A stretch of 64,000 nucleotides of DNA from a virus (IMGVR_UViG_3300022561_001209); one strand, 5' to 3'; shown: positions 16,388-54,929, counted from the stretch's first letter. Notes: generated from the letters alone by a model not told the origin. Translations and numbers: made by a program.

Positions 16388-17638
16388 TTAGGGATTACAT
16401 TTCCCACAAGGGTCATATCCTTGTGATGTTGCTTCGTCCCTTGTTTCAAAGTATATTCTATTTTTTGGGTCAGGCAATGAACTACAAGAATCTAAATGAA
16501 ACTTATGTGAATTTTTATTTCCTATATAAGTTGTCTCACTATTATTGTTTGTATTTACAACTTCCTTTGTAGGTAAAACACTTTCTTTAATTATTACAAC
16601 TTCTTCTTTAGTAATATTTTCTTGTTTTACTGTGCTCTTATTCTCTATAGCATTAACATTAAAAGTAATATCTCTTCCATCTCCTGTAGCTATTATTGTA
16701 CCTTGTGAATCTGTCCTAAATACTTCTATATTTCTAGATTCAAGTCTATCTAATATTTCATTCGATGGATGTCCGTATTTATTATCTTTCCCTACTGATA
16801 TAACAGCATACTCTGGATTAACTTTATTTAAGAAATTTTCTGATGTTGATGTATCACTTCCATGATGCCCTAGTTTTAATACATCTGCTGATACATCTAT
16901 ATCATTTCCTAAAATCTCATGCTCAGGTAAAAACTCATTGTCTCCCATAAATACAAATTTATTATCTCCGTAAACTATCTTTAATGCTACAGAATAATTA
17001 TTTAAATCCTTATATTCTGAATCGTTAGGCGACAATATTGTACATTCTGCCTCACCTAATTTAAATGTATTTCCAACTTTAGGCGAAGTTACTTTTAATC
17101 CCTTATTACTAATTGCATTAATTACATCCTCATATGTCTCAGTAGTACTCAATGTTTTTGGCATTATTATATTTTCTACTTTTATATTATTTATTACATC
17201 ATCTAATCCGCCTATATGGTCTTCGTGAGGATGTGTTCCTATTACATATTCTAAATCTTCTATACCTAGATTATTTATATAATTAACTACTAAATCACCA
17301 TCACCATTGTTTCCTGCATCTATCAGTAATTCGTTATCACCTTGTTTTACTAATATCGAATCTGCTTGGCCTACATCTATAAAGTGTACTTCTATATTTC
17401 CTTTTATCTTACTTACTTCTTCTACTGTAGTTTCTTCTACTGTAGTTTCTGCTACAACCATATTTTCTTCTTCTACATGTATAACTTCTTTATTTACATT
17501 AGGCTGTTCTTTTGATTCAGAACAACCTACTGATATTATCATTACTATTAATAGTAATACACTTATTAATTTATACTGCCTTTTCGACTTTAGTTTCATT
17601 GCATACCTCCGGACTTGCCAATAATTTATTGTCTTCAT
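16388..17638 (-). CDS. secreted metallo-beta-lactamase-fold hydrolase (ComEC C-terminal-like) with C-terminal Ada-type zinc-binding domain
   Basis: signal/TM (LISVLLLIVMIISVGC). MBL motifs HFIDVGQADS, HPHEDHIGG and LKLGHHGSDTS. The C-terminus (KFHLDSCSSLP...GYDPCGKCNP) matches the Ada_Zn_binding pattern. The start is probably an internal Met, since the ORF overlaps the ftsH stop. Confidence 0.75.
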   Translation of the reverse strand: MKTINYWQVRRYAMKLKSKRQYKLISVLLLIVMIISVGCSESKEQPNVNKEVIHVEEENMVVAETTVEETTVEEVSKIKGNIEVHFIDVGQADSILVKQGDNELLIDAGNNGDGDLVVNYINNLGIEDLEYVIGTHPHEDHIGGLDDVINNIKVENIIMPKTLSTTETYEDVINAISNKGLKVTSPKVGNTFKLGEAECTILSPNDSEYKDLNNYSVALKIVYGDNKFVFMGDNEFLPEHEILGNDIDVSADVLKLGHHGSDTSTSENFLNKVNPEYAVISVGKDNKYGHPSNEILDRLESRNIEVFRTDSQGTIIATGDGRDITFNVNAIENKSTVKQENITKEEVVIIKESVLPTKEVVNTNNNSETTYIGNKNSHKFHLDSCSSLPDPKNRIYFETRDEATSQGYDPCGKCNP

Positions 17639-19385
17639 AAATTATTCTGTCAAGGTCATCTCCAGTTAATGTTTCTTTTTCAAGAAGTTCTTTTGCTATT
17701 ATTTTAAGTTTATCTATATTCTTAGTCATTAACTCCAGTGTTTCATTATACAATTTATTTGACAACTCCACAGCTTCGTCAATATAAGTTTCTTTCTTTA
17801 CATCTGCAATTATCAGCATCCCATACTTTTTACTCATCCCATAAATATTAAATAAGTTATCTATATCTTGAGTAGCTTTCTTTATATCTTGAGATGCACC
17901 AGTAGTTATAAGGTCTTCGTCTCCTCTTAATAAGAATTCTCCAACTCTTCCTGCATAACTTACTTTTATGTCGTTCATTATATCTCTCTTCGTAAATAAT
18001 CCCATTTTTTTAGGAATATTAAACGTTACACCGCCTGCACCACTTGTTGATGGTATTATAGTTACCTTATGAACGTCATTTTCTGTAAGTAATTTAGCCG
18101 TCAATGCGTGAGCTGCTTCATGGTAAGCTACTAACTCAAGGTCATCTTTATTTACTTCTTTTCTATTTTTCTTCTTATCTCCTTGCATTAACATTCTGAA
18201 ATAAGCATCGTCAATTTCTTCTTTACCTACTATTTTCTTATCTCTATTAACTGTTAATATTGTAGCTTCGTTTAGCAATGTTTCAATGTCTGCCCCACTA
18301 AATCCTATTGTTATTTTAGCTAACTCTTCTAAAGATATCTCAGAAGATAATCTCTTATTCTTAACGTAAATATCTATTAACTCTTTTCTATCTTCTAAAT
18401 CAGGTAATCCTATAGCAATCTTTCTATCAAATCTTCCAGACCTTGTTAACGCTGGGTCTAAACTATCTAATCTATTTGTAGCTGCTATTACTATTATCCC
18501 TGTATTATTTTTGAAACCATCCATAGCATCAAGTAATGCGTTTATTGTTTGGTCTTTTTCTGAGTTGTTACTTGTACCCCTTATACTTCCGATAGCATCT
18601 ATTTCATCTATAAATACTATACAAGGTGCGTTCTTCTTAGCTTTTTCGAATAATGTTCTTACTCTTCTTGCTCCCACACCTACGTACATTTCTATAAAGT
18701 CTGAACCACTTGCACTAAAGAATGGTACTCCTGCTTCTCCTGCTATTGCCTTAGCTGTAAGTGTTTTTCCAGTTCCTGGAGGTCCATAAAACAAAATCCC
18801 CTTAGTTATTCTTGCTCCCATATCACCATATTTCTTAGGTTGTTTTAAGAATTTTACTAGAAATTCAACATCTTCTTTTGACTCTCTGTTTCCTGCTATG
18901 TCTTTAAATTTTATGTCAGGAATATCTGTCTTATTTTCCTTCTGCTCTGTAATAGCTGCTGAAGGTGTTATTTTCTTAAAAAGTACCGAAAATAATATCA
19001 GCATTATTGCTAATTGTCCTACCATCAATATTATACTTAAGAATGATGATTGTACATTATCTGTTACTTCTTCTACCGATGCATTATTATCCAGTAAATA
19101 TTTTTTAAATCCCTCTACTCTAGGATTATCTGTATAAAATGTATTTCCATCTTTATCTAAATATGTGAATGTACTGCTACTGAAATTTATATATACTCTG
19201 TCTATTTTATTAGATTCAAGTTGTTTCGTAAATTCAGCATATTGTACTCTATCCGTATTATTTATACTTGTGCTGTTATTTTTCCCCGAGCCATCTGCTA
19301 CATATGCTAAAAACATAATTATTATTATTATTATAACATATGTAACTTCTTTACTAGGTTTAAATTTATCCCAACTACTTTTCAA
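17571..19385 (-). CDS. ftsH: FtsH-family membrane-anchored ATP-dependent zinc metalloprotease
   Basis: two TM helices flank an extracytoplasmic domain. Walker A GPPGTGKT, Walker B IVFIDEIDA, SRH TNRLDSLDPALTRSGRFDR, HEAAH zinc site. Confidence 0.9.
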   Translation of the reverse strand: MKSSWDKFKPSKEVTYVIIIIIIMFLAYVADGSGKNNSTSINNTDRVQYAEFTKQLESNKIDRVYINFSSSTFTYLDKDGNTFYTDNPRVEGFKKYLLDNNASVEEVTDNVQSSFLSIILMVGQLAIMLILFSVLFKKITPSAAITEQKENKTDIPDIKFKDIAGNRESKEDVEFLVKFLKQPKKYGDMGARITKGILFYGPPGTGKTLTAKAIAGEAGVPFFSASGSDFIEMYVGVGARRVRTLFEKAKKNAPCIVFIDEIDAIGSIRGTSNNSEKDQTINALLDAMDGFKNNTGIIVIAATNRLDSLDPALTRSGRFDRKIAIGLPDLEDRKELIDIYVKNKRLSSEISLEELAKITIGFSGADIETLLNEATILTVNRDKKIVGKEEIDDAYFRMLMQGDKKKNRKEVNKDDLELVAYHEAAHALTAKLLTENDVHKVTIIPSTSGAGGVTFNIPKKMGLFTKRDIMNDIKVSYAGRVGEFLLRGDEDLITTGASQDIKKATQDIDNLFNIYGMSKKYGMLIIADVKKETYIDEAVELSNKLYNETLELMTKNIDKLKIIAKELLEKETLTGDDLDRIIYEDNKLLASPEVCNETKVEKAV

Positions 19386-21568: not shown

Positions 21569-22744
21569 TTATAGTGAACCAGGCACGAAGTTAATCCATA
21601 AATACTCTTCTTTAAAATCCTTCTTCTCACCTTTTTCTGTTCTCTGACAAGATAGTGCGAAATCATCTAATTTTACTTTAGCATATGGTTTATCTTCCCC
21701 TACAACCCCTTTAGTTTCAGGTAAAAATCTTGTTGCATTATCCAAAGGATTATAAATCTCATGGTTATATCCAGACAATATGTATTTACCTTGTATCTTC
21801 TGTAATTGGTCTACTAGTTTAACGTGCATACCATCTGCAAACTCGTACATATAAGCTTCTCTAGCTGATTCTCCTCTAGTATCATGTATATATGGAGGGT
21901 CAATATAAAACAATGTATCAGGACTATCATATTTCTCGATTACATATTCATAACTCATGTTCTCTATCGTTATGCTTCTGAATCTCTCAATTACTCTTGG
22001 CAATCCATCTTCAATTCCGTTTAGCCACCTTTTCATTGCTGGACTCAATGTTCCACTTTTTACTGATTTATCACTTTTCCAAGATTCCAAACCTGCTGAG
22101 AATGACTGTTGACATAATATGTAAAACATTCTTGCTGTTTCAATTTGTACTCTATCTTTTTCACCTGTAAGTTCATTTAATTTAACATCATAATCTTGTC
22201 TTACTTCGCCTGACTTACTCTTCTCCAGTTTTTCTTTAAGTTCTAACTCTTTCTTATCTAATTTCTCGATTGCCTTATGGTAATCCTCAGCTACTGTTTT
22301 ACCACTATCTAAGTCTTCTTTTAACTTATTTTTCTTATCTGAAATTTGAGTTATCTCAATCATAAATTTACCATCATCTATGAATTTATCGTTGTACTCA
22401 TTCTGCAACTTGATAATTTCATCATCTATTGCCGTTATTCCTTTATCCCAGTTTAACTTAGCATAGTTAAATTCATCTCTTCCATAAAGTGTTAATTGTA
22501 GTTGTTCTAGTAATTCTTTTGAACGTTTAGCATCTCTCAATACTGAGAACAAAGATACTAGTCCTTTATTAATATCATTGTAAACTTCTAATTTATCTCT
22601 TTTCTTGTTTAATATTACGTGTGCCCCACCACCAAATACTTCCACGTAATTAGTATATCTTGTTGACTCTATCAGACCTATGATTTGCTTAGCCATTTTA
22701 GCTTTTCCACCATACCACCCGATTGCACTTATTTGACTTGCCAT
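21569..22744 (-). CDS. dam: DNA N6-adenine methyltransferase (Dam family) with large internal coiled-coil insertion
   Basis: N-terminal AdoMet motif WYGGKAKMAKQI and catalytic DPPY (LFYIDPPYIHD). Confidence 0.85.
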   Translation of the reverse strand: MASQISAIGWYGGKAKMAKQIIGLIESTRYTNYVEVFGGGAHVILNKKRDKLEVYNDINKGLVSLFSVLRDAKRSKELLEQLQLTLYGRDEFNYAKLNWDKGITAIDDEIIKLQNEYNDKFIDDGKFMIEITQISDKKNKLKEDLDSGKTVAEDYHKAIEKLDKKELELKEKLEKSKSGEVRQDYDVKLNELTGEKDRVQIETARMFYILCQQSFSAGLESWKSDKSVKSGTLSPAMKRWLNGIEDGLPRVIERFRSITIENMSYEYVIEKYDSPDTLFYIDPPYIHDTRGESAREAYMYEFADGMHVKLVDQLQKIQGKYILSGYNHEIYNPLDNATRFLPETKGVVGEDKPYAKVKLDDFALSCQRTEKGEKKDFKEEYLWINFVPGSL

Positions 22745-22745
22745 A

Positions 22746-24332
22746 TTATTCTGCTACCTCCACGTATTTTATCTCTGAGTTTTCTCTAAAAGTATTAAAT
22801 CCATTTTCGAACACTTGATATTTCTTATAGTTTTTAATTGTATTAATTATAGAATCTTTTAACTTTTCATATGTATCGTTCTTATCTGTTACCATACCCA
22901 ATATTAAATTATCTGTTGTATCACTTGATTTAATTATTATATCTCCAATATTTGATGTAGCTACATCTGCTCCGAACAAAGAGTCATATTTAGTAATCCC
23001 TGTTTGTTCTGATACACTCCCACTATTATCTTCAAATAACTTCAATAATATATTTATATCTTTTGTTTCAGCTAATTTCTTTCTGAATGTATCAGCCTCA
23101 TCTGTCTTATTAAGTATTGCATACTTAATATTTATACTTGATATTTCATCTTTTGAATTATTGAAATATGTCTGAGCTTCTTCTTCAGTTACTACTAAAT
23201 CATTACTTATTTTTTCTACAATCTTATCTCTAAGTAAGTTTGTTACCATATTATCCTTGAATCCTTCTATAGTTGTTCCACCTTCGTAAATCGTTCTCTC
23301 AAACTCTTTATTACTGGAATAACTTTCTATCAGATTTTTTAATGTTTCTTCTACTTCTTTATCTTCTAACTTAACCCCTAAACTCTCTCCATATTGTTTT
23401 AGTAATACACTATCTATCATACTATTTAAATAATTGTATCTGTGTATTTTATTGTATTCCTGTAAATCTGCTTCTGATATTTTTATACCATTAACAGTAG
23501 CTACAGAAATAACTTTCAATTCTTCTAATGTTGAAGGGTCTTTTTCTGTATTTTCAATTTTATTTATTGATTCCCACAATGTTTTAGGTGTTACACCAGT
23601 TTTATATGATGCGTAAATTAATATCCCTACTATACTCAGTATTATTACTGAAATTATTATCTTTTTCTTTGTTTTAGACTCTTTTATTTTAGAATCCAAA
23701 TCTATTATGTCAAAATCCTCATTCTTATACTTACTTTTTAATTCTTCATCTGTATCAGGTCTCATTAAATCTTTAAGTTCTTCAGCAATTACTGAAGAAC
23801 TAGGATTAATTTGTATTACTGCTTTAGATTCACTCCCCTTGTCGACGTTTGTTGTCATTTTATCAAAAGGTTTTTCATAAATATCAGAATTTGATATATC
23901 TGATGGTCGGCCACTACCATCATCCGGAATTTCTTCAAAACTTTTAGTTTTGTCTTCTTCAGTTGTATCTACCCAACATCCCTCATTGTATACGTTAATC
24001 ATTGGGTCTTCTGAACTCATTTCTGAATCCTCCTGTTTTAACTCTACAACTACATTTGTTTCATAAACATTTCCATTTTCTGACGATTCTTCAGTTTCGT
24101 TATCCAATATCTCTGAATGTGTTTCCTCTTCAATTTCCATTTCTTCCTGTCCTTCAGATTGCTTTATTTCAAGACCATCCCTGCGAGTGGAACTGCCTAA
24201 GAAATCATCACTAACTTGCTCTGAATTTAAGTCTTCCCGTACTTCTTCTATTTTATCAGTATTTTCTGTTATTACCTTTTCATCTGTATCAATATTATTA
24301 AACTGTTTATTATTTCTTTTACGTTTAGACAC
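22746..24332 (-). CDS. membrane-anchored protein: long acidic disordered N-terminus, one TM, extracytoplasmic PrsA/SurA-N-like chaperone domain
   Basis: D/E/S-rich first 210 aa; TM IIISVIILSIVGILIYASY; VISVATVNGIKISEADLQEY resembles SurA_N/PrsA N-domain; no parvulin motif seen. Confidence 0.4.
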   Translation of the reverse strand: MSKRKRNNKQFNNIDTDEKVITENTDKIEEVREDLNSEQVSDDFLGSSTRRDGLEIKQSEGQEEMEIEEETHSEILDNETEESSENGNVYETNVVVELKQEDSEMSSEDPMINVYNEGCWVDTTEEDKTKSFEEIPDDGSGRPSDISNSDIYEKPFDKMTTNVDKGSESKAVIQINPSSSVIAEELKDLMRPDTDEELKSKYKNEDFDIIDLDSKIKESKTKKKIIISVIILSIVGILIYASYKTGVTPKTLWESINKIENTEKDPSTLEELKVISVATVNGIKISEADLQEYNKIHRYNYLNSMIDSVLLKQYGESLGVKLEDKEVEETLKNLIESYSSNKEFERTIYEGGTTIEGFKDNMVTNLLRDKIVEKISNDLVVTEEEAQTYFNNSKDEISSINIKYAILNKTDEADTFRKKLAETKDINILLKLFEDNSGSVSEQTGITKYDSLFGADVATSNIGDIIIKSSDTTDNLILGMVTDKNDTYEKLKDSIINTIKNYKKYQVFENGFNTFRENSEIKYVEVAE

Positions 24333-24356: not shown

Positions 24357-25058
24357 TTAGACACCTAACTCTATTTGTTGATTTCTTTTTTCTCTGTCAA
24401 GTTTAGTTCTATATTCATCTAGTTTTAAACCAATTTCATCTGAATCTTTCTTAAAGTAATATCTAATTATTTCAGGATTATCTGATATCTCTAATACGTG
24501 ATTTACTACAAATATTTGGAAGTCATCATTTTTTGCCATAGCTGATAACACATCACTTAGTTTGCTTGCTGTTGTTCCAGAAGCACCGCTCAAATACTCA
24601 TCAAGTGCTATAAATTTAGAACATTTAGCTAATTTAAGTATAGTTACTACAAATATAAGCGATGAAGATTGTTTTACTGCTGTTCCTATTTTTCTAGGTT
24701 TACCTGTATCATTACTTATAAATTCTATGTTAGTAACTTTACTTGAACCTCTATCATCATCTTCTATCGTAAGTGTGTATGCATTTTTTTGTAATATTGC
24801 GTTTATTCCTGAGTTAATTGCACCCTTAATATGTTGTTTAACACCATTATTACGTTTATCTGTAATTCTTTTTACAACTTCTCCTGCTTTTCTAAATCTT
24901 TCTAATGAATCTTCGCCTTCTTTATATTTGTCCTCTAAGTTTTTAATAGATTTTTTAGTATCATTTCTTACCATAGAGTATAAATCTACTACTTTGTCAA
25001 ATTTAGCTACGTTATTCATTAACTCTTGATATTCTAAATCCAATGAGTTTGTTTCCAA
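24357..25058 (-). CDS. C-terminal half of an SMC/Rad50/SbcC-type ABC ATPase (coiled-coil + signature-like + Walker B + D-loop + H-loop)
   Basis: about 110 aa coiled-coil, then SSSLIFVVTILKLA, FIALDE (Walker B) and QIFVVNHV (H-loop); no Walker A. Confidence 0.55.
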   Translation of the reverse strand: METNSLDLEYQELMNNVAKFDKVVDLYSMVRNDTKKSIKNLEDKYKEGEDSLERFRKAGEVVKRITDKRNNGVKQHIKGAINSGINAILQKNAYTLTIEDDDRGSSKVTNIEFISNDTGKPRKIGTAVKQSSSLIFVVTILKLAKCSKFIALDEYLSGASGTTASKLSDVLSAMAKNDDFQIFVVNHVLEISDNPEIIRYYFKKDSDEIGLKLDEYRTKLDREKRNQQIELGV

Positions 25059-25086
25059 TTTAGTATTCCTCCCTATTTTGAGGTTT

Positions 25087-25148
25087 AAATAGTGCCAAAA
25101 ATAACCTTGAAACTTTCAATATATTTTTATACATTTTTGACACTATTT
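25087..25148. repeat. 16-bp inverted repeat AAATAGTGCCAAAAAT / ATTTTTGACACTATTT separated by 30 nt
   Basis: arms at 25087-25102 and 25133-25148 with 15/16 complementarity; lies between the clamp-like gene and the ABC C-half gene. Confidence 0.5.
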
Positions 25149-25184
25149 TAAGTCCTTTTAAAATTTTTTTACTTTATCTGTAAA

Positions 25185-26282
25185 TTACTCTATATTCAAT
25201 GTCATGTAACCTACTGCCCTACCTTGAGTATCATGTATTTTCATCAATAGTTCTTCAGGGTCAATTTCAATCAATATTTCTTTAGTTCTCATTGTTCCAC
25301 AAATTTGTGTAAATTTATCAACTAGCAAAACTAATGTTCCAGGAACTTTTCCAACTTCTTCTGTTATTGGTAAAGAGTCCTTTGCTTTTTCTCCGTTATC
25401 TCCAAAGCCTGACATTGATAATTTACCATCTCCTATTATACAAACAATTTCTTCTTCGTCTGTAGCTAATTTAGTTCTAGCTAATGAGTTTATAAAATCT
25501 AGTCTATTTACTTTAAATGAGTAATCTATATTAAATTTATCTGCCCAACTAATATCTACTTGTTCTGAATCATGTACTCTGTAAACTAAAATGTCTTTTT
25601 CAGTTCTAATTAATACTTGTTGAGTGTCTTCAAAGAATTTAATCTTTGCCACTTCTGATTCAGATGCTCTCAATATAGTTTGAATTTGTTTAGCTGATTT
25701 ATAATCTATAACATAAGGGTTCTTAGAACCTATTGTCACTTTAGCTAAAATCTGACCTTCAAACAAATATGCGAATTCTTTATTCAAATATATAGTTTGT
25801 GCTGAATAATCTGCTGAATCTGTTCTAGCTAATGGTGTTAAACTTTCTAATATGAATGCTAATTCTTTAGCGTTTAATTCATCTTCAAAATCTTTAAATT
25901 CTACATATTCAAAGTTGATAAAATCATTTTCGAAAGGTTTCTGCATTGTTTTGAATGAGTAATCTCCATCAGTAATTTCTACCTCTTGATTGCCTTCTTC
26001 ATAAACAAATCCAATATTATCATCAGCAGATATATGTTTAATAAGGTCTCTAATTTTGTCTGAACCTAAAGACAATACACTTCCATCGCTAATATCACTT
26101 ACTACATAAGGTACTTGAGCTAGTAATGTTAATCTTCCGTCTGAACCTGCTATATCTACTATTCCTTTTTCAGGTCTTGGAAATAATTTAAAACCTCTTA
26201 AGTGTTCAATTACACTTCCTTCTCCTACTACTCCGTTTGCTTTCTTAATTCCCTCTATTAAATCTTTTCCTTTAATTATCAT
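25185..26282 (-). CDS. DNA polymerase sliding clamp (DnaN-like) candidate
   Basis: 365 aa, the size of a bacterial beta clamp. N-terminus DLIEGIKKANGVV...EHLRGFKLFP...GSDGRLTL parallels the beta-clamp domain I pattern. Similarity is weak. Confidence 0.4.
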   Translation of the reverse strand: MIIKGKDLIEGIKKANGVVGEGSVIEHLRGFKLFPRPEKGIVDIAGSDGRLTLLAQVPYVVSDISDGSVLSLGSDKIRDLIKHISADDNIGFVYEEGNQEVEITDGDYSFKTMQKPFENDFINFEYVEFKDFEDELNAKELAFILESLTPLARTDSADYSAQTIYLNKEFAYLFEGQILAKVTIGSKNPYVIDYKSAKQIQTILRASESEVAKIKFFEDTQQVLIRTEKDILVYRVHDSEQVDISWADKFNIDYSFKVNRLDFINSLARTKLATDEEEIVCIIGDGKLSMSGFGDNGEKAKDSLPITEEVGKVPGTLVLLVDKFTQICGTMRTKEILIEIDPEELLMKIHDTQGRAVGYMTLNIE

Positions 26283-26286
26283 CTTT

Positions 26287-27174
26287 CTATTTTCTCCTAT
26301 TTTTTAGTTTATTGAATTGTTTTTCTAATACTTTTAACTTAGTTTTTAGTTTGTTTCCTAAAAGTTCTTCTTTTGCACGTTCTATACTTCCTAACCATTT
26401 ATTAATTTCTTCTTCTTCGTTTAATTCTTTTCCTGCTGCGTTATCTCTTATAAATTCCATGTAGCTATCTTTATTATTTTCAAAATGGTTTATAGTAGTG
26501 AATGTAAATTGCAAACTCTCTGCTTCTTTTAAATTTAATTCATTCAATGTAAATTTTCTTCTGTTATACATAAGTTCTTCTATCTCTTTGTTCATAGCAT
26601 CTACCATTATCATTTCTTTTTCTTCCTTAATTAGTAAATACTTAATATTAGTCATTATGTATATCTTCTTAGCAAATTCATTTATAGTTGTGAATATTTT
26701 TCTATCTTCAACTAAATCAATTTCTCTTTCACTATTTCCGATTATAGATAACATCAATGTTTCTATGTTACTATTTCCACCTATAGTCATAATCATATTG
26801 CCAATGTCTATCTTTTCTATGAATGTTGTTTTCTTCCTAAATAGTTTACTTCTTCTCTTTGCAATATAATTTAATTTATCATCGAATATTTTCACTATCT
26901 TAGTTATATACAAAGTAACTAATGCTCCAATTATATCAGAATGATGCTTATTTGCTGCTATAACTATTTCTGTAGACTGCATTGTATTTTCTAATTTGTC
27001 TAAATCCATATATTTACATAAATCTATAAACTCTATAGAGTTCATATTACATTTTTGTTTTTCTCCTATCTCTGATAAATGTTTATAATCGAATGTCATG
27101 TATTCTTCTATTTCTTTTAAATCTAATCCTATGCATTCTTTCATAAAGTCATAGATATCTATTTCAACACTCAT
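26287..27174 (-). CDS. hypothetical protein
   Basis: ORF 295 aa, no P-loop. Confidence 0.4.
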   Translation of the reverse strand: MSVEIDIYDFMKECIGLDLKEIEEYMTFDYKHLSEIGEKQKCNMNSIEFIDLCKYMDLDKLENTMQSTEIVIAANKHHSDIIGALVTLYITKIVKIFDDKLNYIAKRRSKLFRKKTTFIEKIDIGNMIMTIGGNSNIETLMLSIIGNSEREIDLVEDRKIFTTINEFAKKIYIMTNIKYLLIKEEKEMIMVDAMNKEIEELMYNRRKFTLNELNLKEAESLQFTFTTINHFENNKDSYMEFIRDNAAGKELNEEEEINKWLGSIERAKEELLGNKLKTKLKVLEKQFNKLKNRRK

Positions 27175-27198
27175 AAAATCTTTATCCCCCTGTAATTG

Positions 27199-27501
27199 TT
27201 AAAGTAAATCGTCTGATGTCTGTAACTGAACTGTTTCTGCCTTTTTAGTTATTTCATCATATTCTGCTAACTTTCTTTTTAATGATTCCATCTGTAATTT
27301 TACTCTACTTTCCAAATCATTCTTAATGTTAGCAATATCATCCTTTGATTTAAATTCATAACCCTTAGCTATTAGTTCTTTTAAAATTTTATCAGCTTCT
27401 TTTTTAGCTAGCTCTCTTTCTGCTTCGAGTTTAGGCTGTTTTCTAATAGCCTCATCCACCTTTGCTGATATTTCATTATATGTGTTTAGTATTTCTGACA
27501 T
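27199..27501 (-). CDS. hypothetical coiled-coil protein
   Basis: ORF 100 aa, K/E-rich heptads. Confidence 0.35.
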   Translation of the reverse strand: MSEILNTYNEISAKVDEAIRKQPKLEAERELAKKEADKILKELIAKGYEFKSKDDIANIKNDLESRVKLQMESLKRKLAEYDEITKKAETVQLQTSDDLL

Positions 27502-27607
27502 AATTTCCTCCTAGTTATCCTTAAATTTAATTTAATTTTTCATTCTTTATACTTATCACTATAAGCTTTTATTTTCAGTTTAAATTCTGTGCAATCACTT
27601 AGTTTTC

Positions 27608-27973
27608 TTAATAACCTACTTCGTTAAGTCTTGTCACTTCTTTGTGTATTTCACTCTCATCTGACATTAATATTTTCATTATTCTATTACCGTTAGCTGA
27701 GCATAAAACCATATAATTTAGTATTGTACATATTTCTTCTTTAGACAATATTCCATCATACCCGTCAAACTTAATTAATACCAGTTTTTCAGCTATATCC
27801 GATAGACCTAAACCATTATACCTATGTATCACTGTATTATAGTATTCGTCTAACCAATCTGCTTCTCCATATTTCATAAGTCCACCGTCTATATCTATCA
27901 TTGCACTAACATTTGATATTTCAGTTCCTTCTTCATTAAATATATAACCATCTATTACTTTCAAAGGTAACAT
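27608..27973 (-). CDS. hypothetical protein
   Basis: ORF 121 aa. Confidence 0.35.
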   Translation of the reverse strand: MLPLKVIDGYIFNEEGTEISNVSAMIDIDGGLMKYGEADWLDEYYNTVIHRYNGLGLSDIAEKLVLIKFDGYDGILSKEEICTILNYMVLCSANGNRIMKILMSDESEIHKEVTRLNEVGY

Positions 27974-27986
27974 ATCCTACCCCCTT

Positions 27987-29036
27987 CTATTGTCCTGATA
28001 TTAGCTTGTCAAATTTTCCATTATACAAATCAATGGCAACTTCTTTAACATCATCAGGCACATCTTCCAATGCTTGTATATCTTCTACAGGATTAAAGTA
28101 ATCTATTTCTACTGTTGATAACTCAACTCTGAAATTCTCAAAAGCATTCTCTCTAATTTTCTTTTGTACTACAAACCCTTTATTAAAGAATTCGTCTGAT
28201 GGTTTTAGTTCCATCTCTACTAATTCTGCATTTAAGCCATAGTCATCCGTAAAATCTATTTCTATTTGAATTAAGTTAGCTGTATCTCTATCTTGACCTT
28301 CATCTAATGAAGTTCTTCCTACACTTCCTGGAGTTATAACCAAAGTTTGTGTTCCATCAGTTTCTATTGAATATGGGTCTATACTTTTATGAATGTCGTT
28401 TATTATTGCTAAATCTACATCCTTGAATATTCCATGGTCTGATGGACTCAATGTTCTTGACGCAAACCCATCTGCTAATATTCCTCTTTCTAGTATTGGA
28501 AAGTGATATGAGTTTATCATTACCTTAGTTTCAGGTCTTCTAGCTTCTATAAAACTGTCTGCTCTTTTATTGTAATTTATAAAGTTATATTGTAACCCTT
28601 CTATAATTAATGTTCTAGGATTAATAATTACCTTGTTATCAATTAACATATTGAAGAATGTATAACCATCAGCGTTACTATCATGTTGACCTTTTACCGT
28701 AAATACTAATGAATTGTATTCTGACAAATCTATTATTTCTCCGTCTTGATTATACACTGTCATTTTTTCTAATGCACCCATATTTTGTAATCTCTCAAGT
28801 GCAACTTCACCTATCTCTTTGAATATCCTCATAAATCTACTGATATACTTCATTCTATCCATATCTTTATGCTGTATATCTCCACCGAATGTTATCATTT
28901 GATAATCACCAGTAAAAAATATATTTTTTATGTTCTCTAAGTTTTTCACAGACTCATCAGCATAATTAGGTGCACATCCTACTTTATCATCAAATAAGTG
29001 AGGGTCTGGTATATGTAATATATTTAGTTTTTCCAT
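27987..29036 (-). CDS. SbcD/Mre11-like calcineurin-fold nuclease
   Basis: motif I ILHIPDPHL (D-x-H), GDY and GGDIQH motifs; overlaps stop of upstream SbcC-like gene by 1 nt. Confidence 0.6.
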   Translation of the reverse strand: MEKLNILHIPDPHLFDDKVGCAPNYADESVKNLENIKNIFFTGDYQMITFGGDIQHKDMDRMKYISRFMRIFKEIGEVALERLQNMGALEKMTVYNQDGEIIDLSEYNSLVFTVKGQHDSNADGYTFFNMLIDNKVIINPRTLIIEGLQYNFINYNKRADSFIEARRPETKVMINSYHFPILERGILADGFASRTLSPSDHGIFKDVDLAIINDIHKSIDPYSIETDGTQTLVITPGSVGRTSLDEGQDRDTANLIQIEIDFTDDYGLNAELVEMELKPSDEFFNKGFVVQKKIRENAFENFRVELSTVEIDYFNPVEDIQALEDVPDDVKEVAIDLYNGKFDKLISGQ

Positions 29037-29037
29037 C

Positions 29038-30387
29038 TTAACCTGTCATACCTCCTAATTCTTCTATCCTCTTATTTGAGAAAGGACATCTCATATCTTC
29101 TCTCTGTACTACTACAGGACAGAATTTGTTCTTTTTCATAAATGAATCTAATTCTAAACGTTTAACTTTTACTTCTTCTACAACTCCGTTAAGTTCTTTC
29201 ACTTTAACTCTTGTATTACTCAAAGCATCAGTTAATTTATTTACTTCTTGTAAATCATTTTTTAATTTCTCTAAATCCGTAAATTCTTTTATTAATTCTT
29301 CATTTCTTCTTAATGCCATGTCTTTTAACTCAACAGCTTTGTCTAACTCTATAGCTTTAGTTAAAAGTTGGATTTCTCTGATTATATCTGAATGTCCTTT
29401 GCTTAATTCATCTATGCTTTCTGTTATATTTATTACTTTCTCAGCTTTTTCATCTGCATTATTAAGTTCATCATATGAGTTTAATAATTTTAAATCTGAC
29501 ACTAAATCTTTAATTTCCGTGTTTACTTGAATTATCTCTTCTATCTTAGCTGTCTCTGTTTTTAATACTGCATATTTAGTAGAAGCATCTACTAACTCTG
29601 TCATTCTTTCTATGTCTCTAACCTCATTGTAAAGTTTTTCTTTATCTAAGTTAGCTATTTCAGAAGGTAAACCTGCAACTTCTTGCTCTATCAGTACGTT
29701 TAAATCTTCTAATCTAGTTACTTGATTTAATATTCCATAAGACTTTCTAACTTCAGTTACGTAAACATCCATCTTTCTTTTGTCTTCTGTTAAATCTACG
29801 TAATCATCTAACTTGCTTTTCTCTAACTCTACTTTTCCGTATGTTATATCATTTTCAGCTTTAACTGTTTTTACTATCTTATTATTTATTTTTATAGATT
29901 CTCTTAATCTATCAGTTCCTAAAGCTTTTTGAAAATAACTATAATTTTCAGACGGTGTTGTATTCGTAAATACTGCCTTATCATCTGCTGTTCTTATGTT
30001 GAAGTTTTCATCTCTTTCACTATCAACATACACATTCACTATTTTCTGTATTTCTTCAGGCACATATACTCCTGCTTTGTCAAATAATGCTTTAGTTCCA
30101 TCTGCTCTCTGTAAATAATATTCAGATAGCCCTTGACCCCTTGTTAATTTTATTATATTTCCCTCAAAGTCCTCAGCCTCAATTAAAAAGAAGTCTGCAT
30201 AATCTGATACGTATTTTTTAATTTGATTATTTGGCATATTACAGCAAACAGCTTTCATTGCGTCGATTATCATTGACTTACCATTATCGTTATCAGCTAC
30301 AAAGTGATATACTTTATCATGTTCAAAATGTAACTCTAAATCTCTAATAGGTCCAAAGTTTATTATCTTTAATCTCTTGAACTGCAT
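29038..30387 (-). CDS. N-terminal half of an SbcC/Rad50-like ATPase: Walker-A head, about 290-aa coiled-coil, C-terminal Cys pair
   Basis: LKIINFGPIRDLELHF...ADNDNGKSMIIDAMK (A-x4-GKS); a long coiled-coil; the ORF ends soon after KFCPVVVQREDMRCPF (hook-like Cys pair); no Walker B or H-loop. Confidence 0.65.
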   Translation of the reverse strand: MQFKRLKIINFGPIRDLELHFEHDKVYHFVADNDNGKSMIIDAMKAVCCNMPNNQIKKYVSDYADFFLIEAEDFEGNIIKLTRGQGLSEYYLQRADGTKALFDKAGVYVPEEIQKIVNVYVDSERDENFNIRTADDKAVFTNTTPSENYSYFQKALGTDRLRESIKINNKIVKTVKAENDITYGKVELEKSKLDDYVDLTEDKRKMDVYVTEVRKSYGILNQVTRLEDLNVLIEQEVAGLPSEIANLDKEKLYNEVRDIERMTELVDASTKYAVLKTETAKIEEIIQVNTEIKDLVSDLKLLNSYDELNNADEKAEKVINITESIDELSKGHSDIIREIQLLTKAIELDKAVELKDMALRRNEELIKEFTDLEKLKNDLQEVNKLTDALSNTRVKVKELNGVVEEVKVKRLELDSFMKKNKFCPVVVQREDMRCPFSNKRIEELGGMTG

Positions 30388-30677: not shown

Positions 30678-30785
30678 AACAAGCGCTCCTTTCCTTAAAA
30701 ATCAAAATTTTAATTTTCAAAATCTAAACTTAATTACTAATTAGTTCAATTATCAAGTTCATCAAAATTTTTCTCTTGAAAAATA

Positions 30786-30826
30786 AAAATAACCTCCGAT
30801 ATATATTGGAGGTTATTTTTCAAATT
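30786..30826 (-). terminator. intrinsic terminator (bidirectional context) after ORF 30830-31153
   Basis: TAACCTCC-GATATATAT-TGGAGGTTA 8-bp GC-containing stem flanked by A-run and T-run. Confidence 0.65.
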
Positions 30827-31261: not shown

Positions 31262-32731
31262 TTATTTATATGTGTCTTCCCCTAATGTTGGGGGTGTTTC
31301 TGCTACTTCCACCTTTTGTACAGGTTTATTTTCAGTTATGTTACGTAAATAACTTGCTATGTCTACTCCTGTCAAATCATTCAACATTTGAAATCCGTTA
31401 GCTGCTACATCAGTTACTATCTTACTAACTTTAGACGCTCCACCGTTTCCGTTAGAACCACCGTTATCAATAACAGTAATCTTTTCAATTTGTTCCATAG
31501 GTTTAGCTACTTCTCTCATTATTTCAGGTAATCTAGCCACTACTAAATCAACTATAGCTGCTTGGCCATATTTAGCCATTGCTTCTGCCATCTTATCTTT
31601 AGCTTCTGCCTCTGCTAAACCTTTTGCCCTTATCGCATCAGCTTCTGCGTTACCTCTTATTCTAACAGATTCAGCTTCTGCAAGTGCTTTAACTCTTACT
31701 GTTTCTGCTTCTGCCTCTGCTTGTAAAATAGCTGTTCTTTTATCAGCTTCAGCCTTAACTTCTGCTTCATATCTTTTAGCATCTGCAGGTTTCTTAACTT
31801 CTGCTACAAGTCTTTCCTCTACTACTACAGCATTTTTCTTAGCTAATTCTGCCTGCTGTTCTGCCATCAGTTTTTCATTCTCTACGTCTCTTAATTTATA
31901 TGACATATCTGCATCAGCTTTTGCTTTATCTTGTTCTGCTCTGTATGCCTCTACTTTTAATGACTTATCTTTTTCTGATTCAGCTATTGCCGATTCAGAC
32001 TCTAATCTTGCTTTCTGACCTATTCTTATTGCTTCAGCTGTTTTTATCTCTGTGTCTCTTTTTCTTTCAGCTGTAGCTATATCAGCATCTGACTTAGCTT
32101 GGGCTATCTGAGGAATTGCCCTATTCTCTAAGTAACCACCTTGAGTAGCTATTTTCAATATTGTATAAGATACTAATTGTAAACCCATTGAGTCTAATTC
32201 AGCCCGTATATCTGCCTCTATTCTTTGTTCAAATTGTGCTCTATCATTATTTATTTCTTCTACTGTTAATGTAGATACAATACCCCTTAATTTACCTTCT
32301 AATATTTGTTCTACAATACTTTTAATTACATCAGATGTACTTCTTTTAGAACTTTCACTACAGAACTGTTCTACTGCTGTCAGTACACTTTTTTCTTCGT
32401 TTCTAACCTTAATTACTGCCGTTCCTATAATATTTACAAATATACCTTGTTTAGATGGTGCTTCTGTAATATCTGTTGTCATTGACATATTCTCTAATGA
32501 AATGACGCAGCTTGTCTCAAAGAATGGAATCATTAATCCACCTTTACCACTTAAAACTCTTTTCTTTAAACCTGTAATTACCATTGCTTTATCAGCAGGT
32601 ACTTTCTTCCAAAATAGTGTAATAATCACTACCAATGCAATAACAATAAGTGTTATTGGTGAAAATATTGAATCTAGAATTGCAACCATAATCTTTTTCC
32701 TCTTTTTCTCTTTTATTTTATATTTAAACAC
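31262..32731 (-). CDS. flotillin / SPFH (band 7) family membrane protein
   Basis: N-terminal TM; SPFH core; long A/E-rich flotillin repeats (AEAEAETVRVKALAEAESVRIRGNAEADAIRAKGLAEAEAKDKMAEAMA); then IVDLVVARLPEIMREVAKPM. Confidence 0.8.
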   Translation of the reverse strand: MFKYKIKEKKRKKIMVAILDSIFSPITLIVIALVVIITLFWKKVPADKAMVITGLKKRVLSGKGGLMIPFFETSCVISLENMSMTTDITEAPSKQGIFVNIIGTAVIKVRNEEKSVLTAVEQFCSESSKRSTSDVIKSIVEQILEGKLRGIVSTLTVEEINNDRAQFEQRIEADIRAELDSMGLQLVSYTILKIATQGGYLENRAIPQIAQAKSDADIATAERKRDTEIKTAEAIRIGQKARLESESAIAESEKDKSLKVEAYRAEQDKAKADADMSYKLRDVENEKLMAEQQAELAKKNAVVVEERLVAEVKKPADAKRYEAEVKAEADKRTAILQAEAEAETVRVKALAEAESVRIRGNAEADAIRAKGLAEAEAKDKMAEAMAKYGQAAIVDLVVARLPEIMREVAKPMEQIEKITVIDNGGSNGNGGASKVSKIVTDVAANGFQMLNDLTGVDIASYLRNITENKPVQKVEVAETPPTLGEDTYK

Positions 32732-35520: not shown

Positions 35521-36612
35521 TTAAATACTACTATCTACCACAAAAACCCAAGAACCACCACGATAAATTGTAGTCCACTCCCAATTCTTATCGGCTGATA
35601 ATTCGCCATCTGCAGTTCCTGAATATGTTGGTCTTGTTGTATTACAAATCTTAGCCCAATCACCAGTCCAATGACCTTCTCCAGTATTTAGATGTACACG
35701 ATATATCTGACCTGCTATGGGTCCAAAATCATTACCTGTTGCTTGATATCCATCAAATACTGTTGCTTTACCTATTGAATCATCAACTGTTCTTCCAAGG
35801 TCTATTGCTACCCCTTGACCTGCTCCTAATACCCCTGTTACTGAATCTATTTTTAATACTACTTTTGCACCATCTGCTTTTACAAAGGTATCACCTGCTT
35901 TGGCTTCTCCTCTTGTTGCATCTGTTTGATACAATGTAGTTGCATTTGTTTGTACTGGTGGTTTTACTACTACTGTTGATGTATCTACTACTATCCTTTT
36001 TGTTGCATCTAACATTCTTGCTAACATTGTACAAGCTTCTGCTCTACTACCTGTCTTTGTTCCTTGGAATGAACCATCTTCATAACCCTTTATTAAACCT
36101 TTCATATAGGCTTGCTCTACATAAGTAGTATAATATTGGTTCTGCTGTACTTTATTATAATCTGTCAATATATTTGCTATCCCTACTGTTGCTGTTTTTT
36201 CTTCATATAATAGTTTTTCTGCTATTCTTGTCATTATCATTGTCATTTCATATCGTGTTATTGATTTATCCCAATCACTCTCTGGCATTTCACCTATCTT
36301 TAATATTTCTTGATTTATTGCTTCATCAAATATTTCTGTTGCCCAATGTTCACCTGTTGCTATTTCTACTGACATTACACTTCCTAATGCTATCTTTACA
36401 AACTCTGCTCTTGTTATTGTTCCATCTGGTCTGAATGTTCCATCTGGATAACCATTGATTGAACCTCTGCCTATTAAATAATCTATATTGGATTTGCCCC
36501 AATGATTCGTTATGTCCATAAATTCTGAAGCATATGTCGTTGTTGTAATTACTGATAATAAAAGTGTTGTTATTGCTATCTTTTTAATTGTTCTATAAAA
36601 ATTAAATTTCAT
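35521..36612 (-). CDS. secreted protein with three N-terminal SLH (S-layer homology) motifs and a C-terminal domain of unknown function
   Basis: signal peptide; FMDITNHWGKSNIDYLIGRGSINGYPDGTFRPDGTITRAEFVKIAL plus two further SLH-like repeats. Confidence 0.7.
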   Translation of the reverse strand: MKFNFYRTIKKIAITTLLLSVITTTTYASEFMDITNHWGKSNIDYLIGRGSINGYPDGTFRPDGTITRAEFVKIALGSVMSVEIATGEHWATEIFDEAINQEILKIGEMPESDWDKSITRYEMTMIMTRIAEKLLYEEKTATVGIANILTDYNKVQQNQYYTTYVEQAYMKGLIKGYEDGSFQGTKTGSRAEACTMLARMLDATKRIVVDTSTVVVKPPVQTNATTLYQTDATRGEAKAGDTFVKADGAKVVLKIDSVTGVLGAGQGVAIDLGRTVDDSIGKATVFDGYQATGNDFGPIAGQIYRVHLNTGEGHWTGDWAKICNTTRPTYSGTADGELSADKNWEWTTIYRGGSWVFVVDSSI

Positions 36613-40498: not shown

Positions 40499-41299
40499 TT
40501 ATTTTATCTCTAATATTTCTTTAAATATTTCATAGTTTCCTTTTTTTCCAGGTCTATCATAAACTGCAAATACTACTTTTTTAAATAAATGTAACATGTC
40601 CTCTTCTATAAGAAGTTCCAACCAATTATTTGCTACATCTTTAGTATTATTTCCAAATACACCACATCCGAATGCACCTAATACTACTGTTTTACAACCC
40701 TCACTAGTCATTAACTTTAGTATTTTTCTCATTCTGTTTTTCATTGCTCTTTTAGCTTCTTCTTCATTTTCCTGGTGTTTTAATACTTGTTCCATGTTTA
40801 CAGCTGCTGATGTTACTACTGTGACTGTCTTAGGTTTTTCTACTAGCTTAAAACTTCCTGTTCTAAAAAATCCCACATCTCCAATAATCATATTGTCTGT
40901 GTACATTTTACTCTTTACTTTATTATTAATTTCGTAAAACTCATTTCCCTCAAGTGTGTCATACAAATTGCTACAATAAGCTAAACATTCTTCTTGTGCC
41001 ATTGCACCGTTTTGAAATCCCCCACCAGGATTGTGTGCTGATGCAAAGTTTAGTACACCTATATTATCTTCTTTCAATCTAAATATAGTGTCTACTGTAC
41101 TTTCATTTACTATCTCTATTTCTGTGTTCACAAACTTACTTTGCCTGCTCACATCTAGTTTTTCTAAATAATCATTTCCGTAAAAATCTCCTATTTCTAT
41201 GTAGTTTAATTTAACTGTTTTACCATTTACTTTGTATTGTCCTGCTCCTACTATATCTAAAGTTTCTTTAGCTAAGTCCTTTAGCCTATTTCTATCCAT
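40499..41299 (-). CDS. bacterial-type poly(ADP-ribose) glycohydrolase-like macrodomain protein (DUF2263/TIGR02452 family)
   Basis: exact PARG signature GGG-x7-QEE (NFASAHNPGGGFQNGAMAQEECL) plus diphosphate-binding loop GAFGCGVFGN. Confidence 0.7.
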   Translation of the reverse strand: MDRNRLKDLAKETLDIVGAGQYKVNGKTVKLNYIEIGDFYGNDYLEKLDVSRQSKFVNTEIEIVNESTVDTIFRLKEDNIGVLNFASAHNPGGGFQNGAMAQEECLAYCSNLYDTLEGNEFYEINNKVKSKMYTDNMIIGDVGFFRTGSFKLVEKPKTVTVVTSAAVNMEQVLKHQENEEEAKRAMKNRMRKILKLMTSEGCKTVVLGAFGCGVFGNNTKDVANNWLELLIEEDMLHLFKKVVFAVYDRPGKKGNYEIFKEILEIK

Positions 41300-53717: not shown

Positions 53718-54929
53718 TTAAATTTTTAATGTAGTATGCAATCCCCAAGGTGGTATTTGTGTTTCATTAATTACTACCCATAAAACAGGAATACCATTAG
53801 TTACTCTTTCATCAGGCCAATGTGCATACCCGTCTGTTAAAAATACTATTCCAGTTACATCTTCTCTTTCAAAGTGTTCATTAGTGTACTCGAATGGTTT
53901 ATCAAAATTTGTCCCACCACCACCTTGTGGCTTAATTTTTAATACATCAGTTACTCCCTCAAATTCTGTAGGTTCATAAGCAATACCATCGAAAAATCCT
54001 ATGTATCCAGTTAATTTATCTGCAAACTGATTAACTGCTCCCACTATCTCACTATAAAATGTATTTAATTCCTTATCTCCTATTGAACCACTAGTGTCTA
54101 CCCAAAATAACATCTTCTTAACACTTATACTTTCACCATTAAAATCAGGTAAGAAAAAATCACTTTCACTAAATCTTCTGTCTGGAGGATTAAATGAGTA
54201 GTCATCTATTTCAGGCTGAACAAACTCTGCAAGTAGACTTCTCCAATCTCTTTGAGGTTTAGTTATTTTACCCACTAATCTTTTTAAAAATGCAGGTAGT
54301 TTACCCCTACCCTCTGCCGCTTGAGCCGCACTTACTAGTCTACCACCCCAATCAGTCTCAATACCCTTACCAACTGCATCTCCCCACCTACTATGGTCAT
54401 CCAGTATTCCCAATTTAGATAATAAACTATCAGGTACTAAATCGTAAATTTCTTCAGCGCCCTTGTCTTTATATTTAATATCGTATAATATGCCTTTTGG
54501 CATTTCTAATACACTCTTTTTCTTATCTTTGTTATTTCTATTTATTGTTCTTTCTTTATCTTTATCCATATTTTCTTTGTATTGTGTCATTATATCATGT
54601 ATTGCATAATCACATGCTACATTCCATTTTTCATGTAGTCTATCACCTTTTCTAAATAAGTGTTTTAAAGCAGGGTGCATTACTTCGTGCACTATTACCC
54701 AATTTACTTCTCCCTCGCTCATGTTTTCTATGAAATAAGGATTGTAATATATTTTCTTACCGTCTGTAGCTGCTGTATTTATTGTATAATCTACTTCCAT
54801 TTCTAAACTTAAGATTAGAATTCCGAAGAATGGCATACTCATTAGCATTTGTACTCTTGCTCTAGTTACCTTATCCTTTACCTTATCTTCCCTATCTTTA
54901 CTCATTTCCTTATATATATTTAACGTCAT
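53718..54929 (-). CDS. vWA-domain protein with N-terminal putative zinc-metallopeptidase (HExxH) domain; partner of the MoxR ATPase (DUF2201-type architecture)
   Basis: HExxH in NWVIVHEVMHPALKH; C-terminal vWA with MIDAS LFWVDTSGSIGD ... FFDG ... GGGGTNF. Confidence 0.7.
   Translation of the reverse strand: MTLNIYKEMSKDREDKVKDKVTRARVQMLMSMPFFGILILSLEMEVDYTINTAATDGKKIYYNPYFIENMSEGEVNWVIVHEVMHPALKHLFRKGDRLHEKWNVACDYAIHDIMTQYKENMDKDKERTINRNNKDKKKSVLEMPKGILYDIKYKDKGAEEIYDLVPDSLLSKLGILDDHSRWGDAVGKGIETDWGGRLVSAAQAAEGRGKLPAFLKRLVGKITKPQRDWRSLLAEFVQPEIDDYSFNPPDRRFSESDFFLPDFNGESISVKKMLFWVDTSGSIGDKELNTFYSEIVGAVNQFADKLTGYIGFFDGIAYEPTEFEGVTDVLKIKPQGGGGTNFDKPFEYTNEHFEREDVTGIVFLTDGYAHWPDERVTNGIPVLWVVINETQIPPWGLHTTLKI

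Follow-up and report, generated by a model that had tools for sequence, protein, structure and literature searches.

A widespread phage variant of Mre11–Rad50 in which the Rad50 ATPase is divided between two genes

The present study concerns a 64,000-nt stretch of viral DNA (IMGVR_UViG_3300022561_001209; hereafter, the window) and, within it, a minus-strand gene cassette spanning positions 24357 to 30387. Our analyses indicate that this cassette very probably encodes a phage Mre11–Rad50 DNA-end-processing nuclease, of the SbcCD or T4 gp46/47 type, with a Rad50 ATPase built from two polypeptides, here termed the N-half and the C-half. The corresponding open reading frames (ORFs) are separated by 3,979 nt carrying five further minus-strand ORFs of 349, 121, 100, 295, and 365 amino acids (aa), the first of which encodes the nuclease partner (Table 1); this layout of a Rad50-like ATPase with five genes between its parts had been proposed in a first-pass annotation of the same DNA, and all of the ORFs are present. 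The split Mre11–Rad50 variant is real and widespread: it makes up a large group that had gone unrecognized, to which the window belongs as a somewhat derived representative. The variant is apparently undescribed: a literature search returned no published description of a naturally split Rad50/SbcC, and NCBIfam holds no model for any part of the system.

Two complementary halves of one Rad50-type head

The motifs of the ABC ATPase head are partitioned cleanly between the two proteins, with the Walker A motif in the N-half only and the Walker B motif and H-loop in the C-half only. The N-half comprises head lobe I, a helical arm of ~265–275 aa (helices at approximately residues 145–420 in the AlphaFold2 [AF2] model), and a terminal Cys motif. 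The SMC/Rad50-type A-x4-GKS head noted in the first-pass annotation was thus found, as lobe I only, and its placing of a Cys pair where a zinc hook would lie is borne out by the relatives, the more distant of which carry CPLC, CPTC, CPVC, CTNC, or CSQC in the equivalent terminal place. The window motif can be read as a CPxC zinc hook widened to C-x10-C; it is nearly invariant in the window's clade and looks like a derived hook. The C-half, which starts with TTG behind a GGGAGG Shine–Dalgarno sequence 8 nt upstream, is modeled as two helices (residues 2–66 and 71–89) followed by a mixed α/β domain. As annotated previously, it carries Walker B and the H-loop and has no Walker A or P-loop, a motif also missing from 114 of the 115 members of its family. 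The unequal coiled-coil lengths remarked upon at that time hold as an inequality; the figures, given then as ~290 and ~110 aa, come to ~265–275 and ~88 aa.

Table 1. Coordinates and supporting evidence for features of the split Rad50 cassette
Feature	Position	Strand	Evidence or remark
Rad50/SbcC N-half, 449 aa	29038..30387	-	Pfam AAA_27, AAA_23, AAA_29; profile A7; AF2/Foldseek
Walker A / P-loop ADNDNGKS	30274..30297	-	G36, K37, S38 invariant in clade
Hook-like Cys motif CPVVVQREDMRCPF (C423, C434)	29080..29121	-	13 residues before stop codon
Mre11/SbcD-family nuclease, 349 aa	27987..29036	-	profile A8; invariant metal-ligand positions
121-aa ORF	27608..27973	-	missing from cassette of relatives
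Small helix-loop-helix protein, 100 aa	27199..27501	-	orthologues of 103–109 aa at equivalent position in L001, L002, L004, L013, L014
295-aa ORF	26287..27174	-	missing from cassette of relatives
DnaN-type β sliding clamp, 365 aa	25185..26282	-	PF00712, phrog_947, TIGR00663; position kept in six loci
Rad50/SbcC C-half, 233 aa: coil stub of ~88 aa and ABC head lobe II	24357..25058	-	AF2 pLDDT 74; profile A5; phrog_15167
Atypical signature-motif region GKPRKIGTAVKQ	24669..24704	-	G-T-A vs. family consensus G-[GT]-G
Walker B FIALDE	24597..24614	-	D153, E154 invariant in 115/115 family members
H-loop QIFVVNHV (H187)	24495..24518	-	His in 92/115 family members

Searches with the single N-half, C-half, and nuclease sequences against the PDB, PHROGs, and a phage nucleotide collection yielded nothing useful. 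Individual sequences have diverged too far to be detected directly, and family alignments were therefore built, giving a profile of the 115-member C-half family (A5) and one of the N-half family (A7). Profile A5 matched residues 172–368 of Methanocaldococcus jannaschii Rad50 (3aux_A) with an E value of 4.7e-15 and chain B of Pyrococcus furiosus Rad50 with an E value of 1.4e-13, the alignments spanning nearly the whole profile; SMC matches were weaker, and those to UvrA and ABC transporters were local, covering only the stretch from Walker B to the H-loop. A grouping of the C-half with RecF, RecN, or OLD had been envisaged in the first-pass annotation as the outcome that would speak against a divided Rad50. 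The profile scores best on Rad50 instead, and these three families are absent among the 60 matches listed for it. Profile A7 matched residues 3–225 of the same M. jannaschii chain (E value, 2.8e-16) and ranked Rad50 ahead of SMC, RecF, RecN, PtuA, and OLD, with RecF, RecN, and OLD matching in the P-loop region only.

The AF2 models agree with the profiles. Among the top Foldseek matches in the PDB are, for the C-half, the C-terminal chains 5h66_B, 1xex_B, 3qkr_B, 1ii8_B, and 1f2t_B and, for the N-half, the N-terminal chains 9a9j_A, 1f2u_A, and 5h67_A and also chain A of 5h66. Since the profiles hit complementary parts of Rad50 and the structural models concur, the two halves are complementary pieces of one Rad50-type head. 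Against viral models (BFVD), the C-half model retrieved three stand-alone proteins of ~200 aa, followed by Rad50, SbcC, and gp46-like proteins of viruses at full length. A further BFVD match is Q0E500, a stand-alone 153-aa "16.8 kDa Rad50-like protein" of Spodoptera frugiperda ascovirus 1a; as it matches the C-half model, split Rad50 heads may also occur in viruses of eukaryotes.

The nuclease partner was assigned in the same manner. The single sequence has no Pfam match, and a nine-member profile including distant orthologues (A8) matched Thermotoga maritima Mre11/SbcD with an E value of 2e-14, the top 23 PDB matches all being Mre11/SbcD. The metal-ligand residues D11, H13, D53, H118, D119, H178, and H216 are invariant, and the motifs read HIPDPHL, GGDIQH, GQHD, SYHFP, and INDIH. 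Motif III (28680–28691) reads GQHD rather than the usual GNHD, as it also does in Microcystis phage Mvi-JY20 (L016:5681-6640), and motif V is DIH, not HxH, in the window's clade. Conserved FFN and ENAF..F motifs occupy the C terminus of the nuclease. The nuclease gene had been thought to overlap the N-half gene by 1 nt; the junction actually reads TAA-g-ATG, with a 1-nt spacer at 29037. An AGGAGG sequence lies inside the 3′ end of the N-half gene, ahead of the start codon of the nuclease gene, which suggests that the nuclease gene is translationally coupled to the N-half gene.

Conservation and spread of the split

Relatives were sought with the same division of the ATPase, and it recurs in five related contigs and in distant systems. 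Four of these contigs (L001, L002, L004, and L013) share the order N-half, SbcD, small helical protein, clamp, C-half, and a fifth (L014; 2.8 kb) shows the same order, carrying only the part from the end of the SbcD gene onward. A locus search with profile A1 found none in IMG/VR or GTDB genomes and two loci, in metagenomes only. Close homologues of both halves are separate proteins, at 29–94% identity, and their lengths are constant (414–457 aa for the N-half and 219–257 aa for the C-half); an identical N-half is present on six contigs. An exhaustive hidden Markov model (HMM) search of 1.84 billion representatives returned 295 C-half clusters, the best 150 of which correspond to PHROG 15167 ("ATPase") and are all stand-alone proteins of ~160–340 aa, none longer than 336 aa. 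The split is kept in every relative examined and the halves lie 4 kb apart, so that a frameshift-fused single gene, a possibility raised in the first-pass annotation, need not be invoked.

More distant systems show the same division with variations in gene order and domain fusion. In one contig (L012), a 407-aa N-half ending ...CTNCGELMVLGEEE is followed by a Metallophos nuclease, a 147-aa protein, and the C-half, and Microcystis phage Mvi-JY20 has a 332-aa N-half (...CSQC...), a 319-aa nuclease, a 94-aa protein, and the C-half. Prophage phBC6A51 is also split: BC1852 ("Exonuclease SbcC"; 518 aa; ...CPLCESPMSFDHSH), an N-half whose canonical hook lies at an end reading ...GGVCPLCESPMSFDHSH, is followed by two small genes, one of them BC1854, by the C-half BC1855 ("Chromosome segregation ATPases"), and then by BC1857 ("SbcD"), an order of N-half, small protein, C-half, and SbcD that has no clamp and the parts of which are annotated as unrelated functions. 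In Bacillus phage 0305phi8-36, gp8 is a fusion of Mre11 with the N-half of Rad50 that is homologous to the window N-half (A2 HMM, 3e-12) and ends ...CPTC plus 20 residues; unlike in the window, the nuclease is thus fused to the N-half. Genes for gp7 and gp6 follow, and gp5 is the C-half.

An IMG/VR scan with C-halves of the phBC6A51 and 0305phi8-36 type found 156 loci, of which 81 were analyzed. Their C-halves are 151–272 aa long (median, 207), and none is fused. Of the 72 loci that extend 4.5 kb or more upstream, 70 have an N-half there on the same strand. The 64 distinct N-halves are 296–707 aa long (median, 358), and 62 of them have a CxxC within the last 45 residues, followed by a median of nine residues; the types are chiefly CPLC (38), CPTC (11), CPVC (4), and CPIC (3). 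The two exceptions, CPIFNVQC and CPIVEEFGSC, resemble the CPVV-x6-RC of the window. The genes run N-half, SbcD, C-half in 59 of 64 cases, and one locus (L098) provides a further fusion of nuclease and N-half. Because the CxxC is terminal in 62 of the 64 N-halves and the C-halves are never fused, the family is best described as a Rad50 cut directly after the zinc hook. In the window, too, the N-half ends fewer than ~30 residues past the hook and is followed by a same-strand C-half and accompanied by SbcD, and both lobes and both arm strands are not united in one polypeptide as they are in Rad50. A split Rad50 had been called unusual in the first-pass annotation, which is correct when measured against textbook Rad50 and does not hold among phages, where it is common (70 of the 72 loci): judged from these homologues, the split is present in well over a hundred other phage genomes.

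The small helical protein probably constitutes a third subunit or partner of the split system. In IMG/VR, a jackhmmer search seeded with BC1854 recovered gp7 of 0305phi8-36 and one small ORF in 52 of 59 loci; these ORFs are 75–153 aa long (median, 82), always lie between SbcD and the C-half, and usually abut the downstream C-half gene (median gap, 0 nt). In the window, two genes stand between the small-protein gene and the C-half gene. The match of the window's 100-aa protein to the BC1854/gp7 family is weak (hhalign E value, 7.5e-4, at a probability of 25%; HMM E values, 0.003–0.06). The small proteins of the window's clade (100–109 aa) rank directly after the true family members in the HMM search and share their helix-loop-helix layout and have a corresponding position, and homology is probable. 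In addition, the small proteins of the window and of two relatives (L002:8493-8822 and L004:4011-4340) end in acidic-hydrophobic tails, ...SDDLL, ...DMIDELM, and ...DEFEDLV, which recall C-terminal peptides that bind a clamp or another partner. In relatives, the small-protein gene is immediately upstream of the clamp gene.

Proposed assembly and rival explanations

Collectively, these data suggest how a working complex might be put together. The N-half would supply lobe I with its Walker A motif, the ascending arm, and the terminal hook-derived Cys motif; the C-half would supply a short descending helix and lobe II with the signature region, Walker B, and H-loop. The helix of the C-half would pair in antiparallel fashion with the head-proximal part of the N-half arm, and the two lobes would form one nucleotide-binding domain, much as the separate chains do in the two-chain Rad50/SMC heads engineered for crystallography. 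Two reassembled heads would then dock onto each other around ATP with an Mre11/SbcD nuclease dimer attached, and the terminal Cys motifs of two N-halves would share one zinc ion. The small helical protein, the gene of which abuts the C-half gene in most relatives, would be a further subunit. The data show the family identity of all the parts, their complementarity, and their conserved linkage, and from these we infer the physical assembly, zinc binding, enzymatic activity, and role of the split system; ATP binding and hydrolysis by the window complex are plausible, and the complex likely processes DNA ends and hairpins when a large phage replicates in a recombination-dependent manner.

Several observations weigh against this model. 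The N-half arm, at ~265 aa in the window and roughly 120–300 aa elsewhere, is far longer than the ~60–90-aa helix of the C-half and, on the predicted helices, has no partner strand of equal length. The single-chain AF2 models are only moderately confident (predicted local distance difference test [pLDDT] of 74 and predicted template modeling score [pTM] of 0.48 for the C-half; 69 and 0.33 for the N-half). In addition, C-half relatives on three contigs (L009–L011) and in Microbacterium phage Magritte have no recognizable N-half or other Walker A partner within 8 kb. The ATP site of the window's clade is also atypical: the clade keeps the GKS of Walker A, the D-E pair of Walker B, and the H-loop His without exception, and the canonical LSGG signature, Q-loop Gln, and D-loop are not found. 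The Q-loop Gln position is A134 in the window, followed by DD, whereas phBC6A51 and 0305phi8-36 keep the Gln; the signature region reads PRK[IV]GTA rather than LSGG, with K123 at the position of the signature Ser; and the D-loop is a noncanonical YLSGAS. Because of these three departures, ATP-driven engagement of the heads may be altered or weak in this clade.

The Rad50 arm and hook are thought to signal conformation to the head, and their role is still debated. A simple one-to-one replacement of the descending strand by the small protein plus the C-half helix was considered and finds no support: across 51 loci, the length of the N-half (296–472 aa) does not covary with that of the small protein or the C-half (Spearman 0.15–0.20, p > 0.15), so these two proteins do not simply provide the strand in trans. 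In the AF2 monomer, the N-half arm forms a hairpin whose apex lies at residues 308–324. Lone long helices commonly fold back in AF2 models as an artefact and the confidence is low (pTM 0.33), so the hairpin was not adopted from the model. Two arrangements are possible: two N-halves could pair in parallel as a homodimeric coil with the terminal hook as its cap, or the arm could fold back as a hairpin and so place the hook at the chain break. A fuller proposal, which we hold tentatively and on balance doubt, is that beyond its first 60–90 residues, with which the C-half helix pairs, the arm is no intramolecular antiparallel coiled coil and consists of the N-half alone (as a parallel pair with a shared terminal zinc hook or as a self-folded hairpin), that the small protein is an obligatory fourth subunit on the C-half, and that the assembly is coupled to the clamp in the window's clade. 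Such coupling would be analogous to the interplay in Pyrococcus, where a physical and functional interaction of PCNA with Mre11–Rad50 is reported (PMC6009593). If the arm were the N-half alone, it would show by a natural example that a continuous two-stranded arm is dispensable for Mre11–Rad50 function.

Other explanations for the two halves were weighed. They could be ATPase fragments with no relationship to each other, or belong to separate ABC families (RecF, RecN, or OLD/Gabija-like), and be neighbors without a joint head, as might be argued from the weakness of the single-sequence searches, the lack of a PDB sequence match for the C-half alone, the P-loop matches of the N-half to PtuA-like, RecF, and RecN heads, and the best NCBIfam match of the phBC6A51 C-half, which is RecN at 4.8e-6, far under cut-off. 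However, both family profiles score best on Rad50 across whole lobes, the halves are co-oriented and strictly linked in 70 of 72 loci, the Mre11/SbcD partner is present, and terminal CPxC hooks are a Rad50 hallmark; moreover, Pfam scans of the window proteins found no Toprim-type domain, nor was another OLD-type effector domain found. We thus regard this explanation as very improbable. That a frameshift introduced in sequencing, an assembly error, or the decay of a pseudogene produced the split is scarcely credible, given the 4 kb and five intact genes between the halves, the identical N-half on six contigs, the constant lengths and conserved motifs in both halves at 29–94% identity, and the presence of the split in isolated, completely sequenced phages.

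Two further alternatives differ from the proposed end-processing ATPase in what the proteins do. These may assemble, and the complex of the window's clade could serve as an ATP-binding or structural scaffold, or tether, for the nuclease and clamp, rather than as a conventional ATP-hydrolysing Rad50. The Q-loop, signature, and D-loop departures described above, together with Ala at the second Gly of G-[GT]-G, the change of the hook from CxxC to C-x10-C, and the fixation of the clamp gene inside the cassette in this clade only would all fit a scaffold, but the Walker A GKS, the Walker B D-E pair, and the H-loop His, on which hydrolysis depends most directly, do not vary in the clade, and the metal ligands of the nuclease are intact; we consider a scaffold improbable. 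Alternatively, the module could act in phage–host or phage–phage conflict, through defence, counter-defence, or degradation of host DNA, instead of in replication and recombination. Many coiled-coil ABC ATPases are defence sensors (among the matches are PtuA and retron proteins), T4 gp46/47 is annotated as also degrading host DNA, and some relatives lie beside regulators in temperate phages. Against these points, the neighboring genes are those of replication and nucleotide metabolism (the clamp, a Dam methylase, thymidylate synthase, dUTPase, NrdD, thymidine kinase [TK], and RecA), and nearly all jumbo phages have SbcCD as part of their core machinery (PMC7824862); a role in conflict therefore strikes us as quite improbable.

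The split system shares much with canonical Mre11–Rad50/SbcCD, including T4 gp47–gp46: an N-terminal Walker A and a C-terminal Walker B and H-loop, a predicted coiled-coil arm with a putative CPxC-type hook, an adjacent calcineurin-like Mre11/SbcD nuclease, and placement in a replication and recombination module beside a clamp gene, as in T4. In contrast to the canonical form, the window Rad50 is two proteins, the break falls a few residues past the hook, the C-half retains a descending helix of only ~60–90 aa, and a conserved small helical protein has been added. A close kinship with T4 gp46 was considered and rejected (hhalign, 8e-5 for the N terminus and 0.009 for the C terminus). Separate N- and C-lobe chains that form one head are familiar from two-chain Rad50/SMC constructs (1F2U, 1F2T, 1II8, 3QKR, 9A9J, 5H66, 1XEX, and 3KTA), in which each chain has a short coiled-coil stub; the N-half model matches chain A and the C-half model chain B of such entries. 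Those are laboratory truncations without arm and hook, whereas the window split is natural and its N-half has a long arm and a hook. Jumbo phages also divide other enzymes, the RNA polymerase β and β′ subunits and a minimal Pol III α, into stand-alone pieces that are presumed to be reassembled (PMC7824862). The same survey treats SbcC as an ordinary single ABC ATPase, and a 2026 preprint sorts the Mre11/Rad50 of viruses into fusions, systems of two genes, and solo components. In a study of Mre11–Rad50 fusions, Yoshida et al. (2011; PMC3175470) reported a P-loop NTPase segment as "not observed" in the 0305phi8-36 protein; gp5 (236 aa), encoded two genes downstream and not identified by those authors, appears to be this "missing" segment.

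A natural Rad50 that is cut after the hook and retains a stub of the descending strand offers a test system for the need for a continuous antiparallel coiled coil, and cultivable carriers are at hand in prophage phBC6A51, Bacillus phage 0305phi8-36, and Microcystis phage Mvi-JY20. Current annotation names N-halves "SbcC" and C-halves "chromosome segregation ATPase," "exonuclease," or hypothetical, and gives the small subunit no functional annotation. Viral surveys that count intact versus "solo" Mre11/Rad50 components will misclassify genomes with a split Rad50.

Genes within and around the cassette

The gene directly upstream of the C-half gene encodes a DnaN-type β sliding clamp, as the first-pass annotation had proposed for a gene between the halves. 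The protein matches PF00712 in its N-terminal domain only (E value, 5.8e-7; 30.1 bits against a cut-off of 24.4) and phrog_947, "DNA polymerase processivity factor," over residues 1–309 (E value, 6e-15); its TIGR00663 match (E value, 5.5e-8) falls under the curated cut-off. The clamp gene lies within the cassette in the window's clade only. Co-expression of the clamp with the cassette is likely, and a direct functional link with the split Rad50 is possible by analogy with Pyrococcus. A functional link is not required, since T4 too has its clamp gene (gene 45) near the genes for gp46 and gp47, two small genes downstream of gene 46; most simply, the cassette clamp is the replicative clamp of the phage, co-expressed with its neighbors. 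Because the 121-aa ORF is absent from the cassettes of relatives, it is an insertion specific to this phage lineage, as is the 295-aa ORF. In Magritte (loci L008 and L015), gene 2, annotated "exonuclease," encodes the C-half and has a DnaX-like clamp-loader gene two genes away, and gene 247, annotated "ASCE ATPase," lacks a P-loop motif and is clamp-like by eye.

No convincing minus-strand promoter or terminator was found between the cassette genes. At 30785–30820, a perfect palindromic hairpin with a 16-bp stem, flanked by A and T runs and terminator-like on both strands, lies upstream of an 87-aa helix-turn-helix-like ORF located ahead of the cassette; the transcription unit may begin here. 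The gene next downstream of the C-half (22746–24332, minus strand) encodes a 528-aa protein in which a long acidic N-terminal region is accompanied by a probable transmembrane segment and a SurA-N/peptidyl-prolyl isomerase (PPIase)-like chaperone domain, and a shorter SurA_N homologue occupies the equivalent place in L001. A D12-class (Dam-like) adenine methyltransferase follows at 21569–22744 (minus strand). Its Pfam match falls in two stretches, interrupted by a predicted coiled-coil insertion of ~100 aa (a weak Syntaxin-like match at residues 103–183), and its orthologues in L002 and L004 have just 279 aa.

The window as a whole has a G+C content of ~28%, carries nearly all substantial ORFs on the minus strand, and contains three tRNA genes; a nucleotide search of the phage collection with it gave no match, and no second Rad50-like ORF was found within its 64 kb. 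The contigs on record for its N-half protein reach 220 kb. These features fit a large phage of a low-G+C Gram-positive host. The gene content is mixed, with the methyltransferase and nucleotide-metabolism genes accompanied by cell-like genes that are unusual for a phage, located on the minus strand at 17571–19385, 31262–32731, 35521–36612, 40499–41299, and 53718–56115. This set includes a full FtsH protease, a flotillin/Band 7 protein, an SLH-domain protein, a protein with microbial PARG and macro domains, and a DUF2201 VWA metallopeptidase beside a MoxR-like AAA_3 ATPase. The phage-like contigs of relatives, of which L009–L011 range from 50 to 222 kb, likewise carry other genes, among them NrdD with an intein, a DNA methylase that contains a Hint/intein domain, and a methyl-accepting chemotaxis-type receptor (Cache plus MCPsignal), the intein, methylase, and receptor genes lying at L002:18510-20711, L004:11094-14945, L009:4257-6050, and L001:12829-14628.

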